From the NCBI RefSeq assembly GCF_048403405.1, contig NZ_CP183129.1: 64,000 nucleotides of DNA; one strand, given 5' to 3'. This document shows, piece after piece, positions 30,558-31,158 of this stretch. Position 1 is the first letter of the stretch. The number at the start of each line of letters is the position of its first letter. The notes below the pieces were generated by a model. That model made no database searches. It saw only the letters and a list, made by a program, of their open reading frames with translations, and was not told where the DNA came from. The position numbers and the translations under genes were made by a program. The DNA is from Escherichia coli. Its GTDB lineage: Bacteria > Pseudomonadota > Gammaproteobacteria > Enterobacterales > Enterobacteriaceae.

Positions 30558-30575
30558 GCCAGCCTCACCCCTTAT

Positions 30576-30600
30576 TCCCACTTTGCCCCACAATTTCCCA
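30576..30600 (-). promoter_or_regulatory. Putative MraZ operator: three TGGGR direct repeats at 10-bp periodicity just upstream of mraZ (Pmra region)
   Basis: Minus strand reads TGGGA-aattg-TGGGG-caaag-TGGGA, 20-45 nt upstream of the mraZ ATG. Confidence 0.55.
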
Positions 30601-31158
30601 CTGAAAGGAGTTTACGGAGCGGAGGAAAAGCTTGTCAAGCCAGTCACAAGGCATACCGAGGTAAAAAACCCGATGTTTACGGCTAATATCAGCGTTGTTT
30701 ATTTTACGTCCAACGTGCGAAGCAAATTAACGTTATGAATAGCTGTAAGAAAAAATCCCTCATCGTCATCACCGTTTTAAAATGACTCACTATTTTCCAC
30801 AGCAAATATAAAGTGTCAGTTTGCGACGCGAGCGGCATTTTAGGACATATCTTCCCCGGTTAACAGTCCCTGTTGCGTCTGTGTGGCGCTTGATGCCAGC
30901 GGGTTTGCGCAAAAGCAAAGAAAAGTGTTTGTTAAATCGGCAATTCATCTCTGCATGTAACAAAATAATGCAAAAACGCGCTATCGATATCACTTAATTA
31001 TTGTGAATTTCAGCTGGTGAGGTAATTAACGGGCAGGTTTAAAAGCATTTATCAATAATAGCCAGGAATAGTCTTATTTACTTTAAGGATATTGATGTCC
31101 ATTCCCGTACTCAACGCGCCAGAGAGAAATTCACCTGGCGCGTATTTTTGTTCGCGGC

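Follow-up and report, generated by a model that had tools for sequence, protein, structure and literature searches.

The 64-kb stretch of the Escherichia coli chromosome analysed here (the window) carries three short G-rich direct repeats immediately upstream of mraZ. The question raised by this locus is whether the repeats form the operator at which MraZ acts on its own promoter, Pmra, or whether some other property of the region is responsible for them. The repeats are almost certainly the MraZ operator of Pmra, the promoter of the dcw (mra) cluster. The element is already known, and its sequence in the window is identical to that of the strain used for its characterisation. The alternatives weighed below are a fourth MraZ box, a G-quadruplex, a feature of the leader RNA and chance G-richness. 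The features concerned are collected in Table 1.

By direct reading of the window, the minus strand runs caG-TGGGA-aattg-TGGGG-caaag-TGGGA-ataag-GGGTG-aggctggc-ATG, and a longer minus-strand reading of the region is gcTTGACAagcttttcctccgctccgTAAACTcctttcaGTGGGaaattGTGGGgcaaaGTGGGaataaGGGGtGAGGctggcATG. The original prediction, made from the letters of the sequence, was of three TGGGR direct repeats with 10-bp phasing located 20-45 nt upstream of the mraZ start. All three are present and, counted from the first base of the mraZ start codon (ATG, 30557-30555), they extend from -43 to -19, so that the distance given was close to the measured 19-43 nt. The repeat period is exactly 10 bp, with 5-nt spacers if the repeats are read as TGGGR and 6 nt between the cores if they are read as the 4-nt unit GTGG.

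The pattern TGGG-N6-TGGG-N6-TGGG gave one match on both strands of the 64 kb and was found in 0/100 dinucleotide-preserving shuffles. The two-repeat pattern TGGGR-N5-TGGGR gave two overlapping matches in the window, solely at the operator, where 0.34 were expected. When the core was taken as GTGG the three-box pattern was likewise unique in the window, and the sole match with one mismatch was the same site slid by one period onto a fourth element considered below. Two GTGG boxes separated by six bases are not rare by themselves (3 matches in the window compared to 2.2 expected), hence the signal resides in the triple. No other MraZ site was found in the window, the only other two-box GTGG-N6-GTGG (52345-52358, minus) being within chance expectation.

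Table 1. Features of the mraZ operator region, and Rfam matches elsewhere in the 64-kb window.
Feature	Position	Strand	Basis or remark
Pmra -35 hexamer TTGACA	30633..30638	-	Promoter scan, 10/12 match, 18-nt spacer; invariant in 79 unique orthologous upstream sequences
Pmra -10 hexamer TAAACT	30609..30614	-	Promoter scan; invariant across 80 Enterobacteriaceae species
MraZ box 1, core GTGG	30598..30601	-	TGGGA register 30600-30596; 4 core bases invariant in 79 unique sequences
Published mraZ1p/Pmra transcription start	30595	-	Inferred as 30557+38 from the reported 38-nt 5' UTR
MraZ box 2, core GTGG	30588..30591	-	TGGGG register 30590-30586; invariant TT directly 5'
MraZ box 3, core GTGG	30578..30581	-	TGGGA register 30580-30576; invariant AAA directly 5'
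Fourth in-phase element GGGG, candidate MraZ box	30568..30571	-	3/4 match to GTGG; adjoins Shine-Dalgarno
Shine-Dalgarno core GAGG	30563..30566	-	5 nt before ATG; by inference; GTGAGG in most relatives
mraZ coding sequence, 152 aa + stop	30099..30557	-	Pfam PF02381 4e-47; TIGR00242; K-12 MraZ identity
rsmH (mraW), second gene of the Pmra-controlled operon	29156..30097	-	Pfam PF01795 1e-123
SgrS sRNA	41377-41603	-	Rfam gathering threshold
Leucine operon leader	36469-36618	+	Rfam gathering threshold
TPP riboswitch	44380-44479	+	Rfam gathering threshold
PssrA	14878-14967	-	Rfam gathering threshold
STnc40	9162-9231	-	Rfam gathering threshold
naRNA4	8569-8646	-	Rfam gathering threshold

The promoter scan placed a near-consensus sigma-70 promoter, TTGACA-18-TAAACT, with its end 7 nt ahead of box 1. 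The boxes are held in the interval between the -10 hexamer and the mraZ ATG (TAAACT ends at 30609, box 1 begins at 30601 and the ATG is at 30557). The 5' UTR of the E. coli mraZ1p transcript has been reported as 38 nt (PMC5089854), giving a +1 at 30595. With this numbering the boxes fall at -6/-3, +5/+8 and +15/+18, within the DNA held by RNA polymerase. The published +1 lies 13 nt past TAAACT, the only credible -10 hexamer, and this is an unusual spacing. With ordinary spacing from the -10 hexamer, transcription would be expected to begin at about 30603-30601, on the first bases of box 1. Under either position the boxes straddle the start site. As they also begin so close to the -10 hexamer, bound MraZ would occupy DNA that RNA polymerase must hold, and we infer that repression operates by steric occlusion.

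The gene directly downstream encodes the cognate protein. Besides its Pfam match, which consists of two SpoVT/AbrB-like halves, the mraZ reading frame matches the NCBIfam equivalog TIGR00242 with 225 bits against a cut-off of 98 bits, and RefSeq names it 'division/cell wall cluster transcriptional repressor MraZ'. The protein is identical to K-12 MraZ at 151/152 residues, the difference being H41/Y41. Both DxxxR motifs are intact (D11-S-K13-G-R15 and D87-G-A-G-R91). In HMMER alignments with Mycoplasma genitalium MraZ (PDB 9qlr, 9qlg, 9sx6), D11, K13 and R15 align exactly, and D87 and R91 correspond to D82 and R86. The gene order is cra-mraZ-rsmH-ftsL-ftsI-murE, with an intergenic region of ~600 bp between cra and mraZ. 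The list of open reading frames extends mraZ to a TTG at 30593, inside the operator (30099-30593, minus, 164 aa). This longer frame was rejected as a mechanical extension, the RefSeq start being the ATG at 30557 (152 aa).

The K-12 MraZ operator, three direct repeats between Pmra and mraZ, occupies the same locus with identical repeats and the same gene order. The window is 100% identical to NC_000913.3 over 30540-30620, which takes in the -10 hexamer, the repeats, the leader and the start codon. Over the 161 nt from 30700 to 30540 there is one difference from K-12 MG1655, at 30621, and this base (C/A) and residue 41 of MraZ are the only changes, leaving the repeats untouched. An 801-bp query was present in 5423/5426 E. 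coli genomes and 100% identical to many complete ones. The 48 nt comprising operator and leader were identical in 5140/5401 matched E. coli genomes.

Some variation within the species was also observed. The single Pmra-region difference from K-12 MG1655, where the window has C and K-12 has A, falls in the spacer between the -35 and -10 hexamers. About a third of E. coli genomes (1906/5423) differ from the window by at least one base over an 86-nt promoter/operator query, and in MLI106K2, the one such differing genome checked, the difference sits at this same position. E. coli WS3294A (NZ_CP035819.1) has a 5-bp deletion (CAGTG), equivalent to window positions 30603-30599, with which the GTG core of box 1 is lost. 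Of the 5423 genomes this one alone falls in the band of 90-95% identity, and among the loci retrieved it alone lacks the three-box pattern. The deletion could be a natural operator mutation or an assembly error.

Conservation was examined by scanning one genome per species for relatives of MraZ. This gave 80 loci with MraZ 88-96% identical, among the genera being Escherichia (E. albertii), Citrobacter, Klebsiella, Enterobacter, Kluyvera, Raoultella, Buttiauxella, Cedecea and Siccibacter. The pattern GTGG-N6-GTGG-N6-GTGG occurred exactly once per locus (1.3-1.9 kb each) in 80/80 species, always just ahead of mraZ and on the strand of that gene, with the 10-bp spacing of the boxes kept in every case; all 80 species are Enterobacteriaceae and this conservation therefore partly reflects shared ancestry. 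In the alignment of 79 unique upstream sequences all 12 bases of the GTGG cores were invariant, as were TT directly 5' of box 2 and AAA directly 5' of box 3, and 98% of the cells in the block from the -35 to the -10 hexamer matched the window. Other positions were free to change. Two bases in the middle of the spacer between boxes 2 and 3 agreed with E. coli in only 20-30% of these unique sequences, two bases before box 1 did so in 0 to ~30%, and the base after box 3 in 0%. These variable positions indicate sufficient divergence for the footprint to be meaningful. As judged from the alignment, cores that do not vary, set at a constant period and separated by positions free to change, are a protein-recognition footprint.

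The same alignment bears on the register of the repeats. The fifth base is G in 57/58 unique sequences for box 1 and again for box 2. The fifth base of box 3 (30577), which is G in E. coli, is never G in the 58 unique relatives, where T, A or C stands in its place, and it follows that three copies of TGGG are found only in E. coli. The TGGGR register first proposed is thus true of E. coli, but across the relatives compared the constrained register lies one base 5' and the conserved unit is GTGG(G). This core agrees with the published cross-phylum consensus GTG(G/T)-N6 and with a cryo-EM structure from 2026. With the register so amended, the original assignment of the repeats to MraZ as the operator of Pmra is supported by their position and phasing, the cognate gene, its DNA-contact residues, the phylogenetic footprint and the identity with K-12, and none of the observations contradicts it.

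Two classes of leader were noticed among the relatives. In 43 unique sequences box 1 is 43-45 nt from the ATG, and in another 15, which come from several genera, the distance is 52-54 nt. The two classes differ by an indel of ~10 bp between box 3 and the Shine-Dalgarno sequence. Its length corresponds to a single repeat period, which is what slippage among 10-bp repeats would produce. The additional unit of Buttiauxella, AAAGGGGAATTT, is in phase and resembles a degenerate box.

The E. coli K-12 MraZ operator was reportedly the subject of Eraso et al. 2014 (J Bacteriol 196:2053). That work reportedly defined three repeats, TGGGN with 5-nt spacers. As summarised in PMC7761207 and PMC8475190, Eraso et al. 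2014 found that MraZ binds repeats located between Pmra and mraZ and represses Pmra; PMC12957436 and bioRxiv 2022.02.09.479790 also describe this E. coli work. According to three of these papers (PMC7761207, PMC8475190, PMC12957436), the first genes of the cluster are repressed, and mraZ is one of them. The R15A mutation abolishes the effect of MraZ in E. coli (bioRxiv 2022.02.09.479790). How the protein reads such DNA has been seen by cryo-EM in 2026 for M. genitalium MraZ on a four-box promoter, where four adjacent subunits of an opened ring engage the DNA, the beta-sheet 'cradle' of each entering the next major groove along (PMC12957436). Lys13, Arg15 and Arg86 contact the bases TG(T/G), and Asp11 and Asp82 position the arginines (PMC12957436).

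If the published binding and repression by E. coli MraZ, together with the mode of DNA recognition seen for the M. genitalium protein, are carried over to the window, the following mechanism may be proposed. The MraZ encoded directly downstream forms a ring-shaped oligomer, each subunit having a two-lobed SpoVT/AbrB-like 'cradle' and two DxxxR motifs. With 10 bp from centre to centre, neighbouring boxes lie on the same helical face, and adjacent subunits would enter successive major grooves and read TG(G/T) via Lys13, Arg15 and the arginine of the second motif (R91). Three, possibly four, neighbouring subunits would then bind across the start site and either exclude or trap RNA polymerase. The outcome would be repression of mraZ and of the cell-wall and division genes downstream, in other words negative autoregulation.

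The arrangement can be compared with those in more distant bacteria. The operator of M. genitalium and M. gallisepticum is (AAAGTG[T/G]-N3) x3-4, with structures in PDB entries 9qlg, 9r4j, 9sx6, 9sz7 and 9qlr (PMC12957436). As in E. coli, direct repeats with a GTG(G/T) core and a 10-bp period overlap the start site upstream of mraZ, an A-rich 5' flank is present (AAAGTGG at box 3 in E. coli), and K13, R15 and the arginine of the second DxxxR motif are conserved in the protein. However, M. genitalium has four boxes whereas E. coli has three clear ones with a preference for GTGGG, the proteins are only ~28% identical, and E. coli MraZ is reported to be a dodecamer as opposed to the octamer of mycoplasma (PMC12957436). 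The mra promoter of Bacillus subtilis has three GTGG[A/T]G motifs with 4-nt spacers, sharing the GTGG core and the 10-bp period with E. coli. This triple is unique in its genome, and repression depends on R15 and R86 (bioRxiv 2022.02.09.479790). B. subtilis is Gram-positive, and the preference at the sixth base and the flanks differ from those of E. coli. PmraBc of Burkholderia cenocepacia has four 7-nt repeats with 3-nt spacers and thus differs from E. coli in repeat number and in details of sequence, but it too has a 10-bp period and lies downstream of the -10, overlapping the start site, and MraZ was examined there by EMSA (PMC7761207).

The reading that survives best beside a three-box operator is a refinement of it, in which the GGGG at 30571-30568 would act as a fourth box, bound weakly by MraZ, with four subunits engaged as in M. 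genitalium and the operator reaching into DNA encoding the ribosome-binding site. A degenerate fourth repeat, GGGTG (30570-30566), had in fact been suggested in the original prediction. An in-phase GGGG does exist there and matches GTGG at 3/4 bases, but in the TGGG register the match is only 2/4. The GGGG stands exactly one period past box 3, is found at the in-phase position in 47/58 unique relatives, and would bring the number of repeats to that of the M. genitalium and B. cenocepacia operators, which have four (PMC12957436, PMC7761207). In leaders longer by 10 bp (Buttiauxella and others) a G-run, GGGG or GGGT, is often still present one period after box 3 even though the Shine-Dalgarno sequence is 10 nt further on. 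Against this, the fourth element does not have the T contacted by Lys13 in the structure, and the in-phase tetramer varies among the long-leader genera other than Buttiauxella (GGGT, AGGG, GGAT, TGAG, GTTG and GGTC). In the short-leader species the element is within AAGGGGTGAGG and inseparable from selection on the Shine-Dalgarno region; conservation of the GGGG is not assignable to MraZ because it adjoins the GAGG of that sequence. A fourth box is doubtful. If it were true, a weak fourth contact would tune the cooperativity or the ring-opening of the MraZ oligomer, as in the four-box complex of M. genitalium.

It has also to be considered whether the G-tracts act as such. The minus-strand sequence 30599-30568 fits the canonical quadruplex motif, four G3+ tracts with N1-7 loops, the tracts being GGG 30599-30597, GGGG 30589-30586, GGG 30579-30577 and GGGG 30571-30568 and the loops 7, 6 and 5 nt. 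A joint reading, with a four-site array and with the E. coli-specific G at 30577 completing a quadruplex motif that would compete with MraZ on the non-template strand, is decidedly unlikely. That the repeats serve to form an intramolecular G-quadruplex, either in the leader mRNA or in the non-template strand of the DNA, and not to bind MraZ, is very improbable indeed. Canonical quadruplex motifs are over-represented in the window (5 compared to 0.75 expected, with 0/200 shuffles reaching 5), and a quadruplex downstream of PmraZ has been reported and biophysically tested in Staphylococcus aureus, where a G-rich tract lies downstream of the mraZ promoter as it does in E. coli, with a claim of conservation in Gram-negative bacteria (PMC11796246). 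However, the data come from S. aureus only, no such experiment on the E. coli sequence being found in the literature, and although E. coli fits the canonical motif, the motif is absent from 58/58 unique Enterobacteriaceae leaders, E. albertii included, because box 3 is followed there by T, A or C (GTGGT/A/C). The invariant G-T-G-G moreover includes a T, which a quadruplex does not need. As a selected feature the G-quadruplex was rejected on its occurrence in 0/58 unique orthologous leaders. From the sequences compared, the E. coli motif looks like a by-product of the operator and the G-rich Shine-Dalgarno region.

Other quadruplex motifs were noted elsewhere in the window. Two near-identical G/C-rich palindromic intergenic repeats, CCCCTCGCCCCT..GGGGAGAGGG..GGGGTGAGGGG, at 47780-47815 (+) and 53236-53270 (+), have G-arms that score as canonical motifs; they resemble the boxC repeat family of E. 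coli. Two further canonical G3 motifs are at 21686-21708 (-) and 8851-8879 (-).

It is barely conceivable that the repeats are unrelated to a DNA-binding protein and represent chance G-richness or a translational or RNA-structural feature of the 5' leader: the transcribed leader does contain boxes 2 and 3 together with the fourth element and is purine-rich near the Shine-Dalgarno sequence, but chance was ruled out by the absence of the triple from the shuffles, leader RNA structure was ruled out by an unremarkable fold (MFE -16.1 kcal/mol, z = +0.53, 137/200 shuffles folding as well) and by the lack of any Rfam match at the gathering threshold in the operator/leader region, and a strict 10-bp period with invariant GTGG and free spacers is the signature of DNA recognition and not of RNA pairing. 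The six Rfam matches elsewhere in the window (Table 1) are all to be expected in this chromosomal region of E. coli.

The reading that remains is the MraZ operator of Pmra, a textbook autoregulatory operator heading the division and cell-wall cluster of E. coli, and its identification here has little value as a discovery. The use of the check is that the operator could be recognised from raw sequence, and that comparison of 80 species corrected its register from TGGGR to GTGG. What the comparison adds for the family is the constrained unit itself: GTGG(G) with a 10-bp period and with TT and AAA as 5' flanks across the Enterobacteriaceae.
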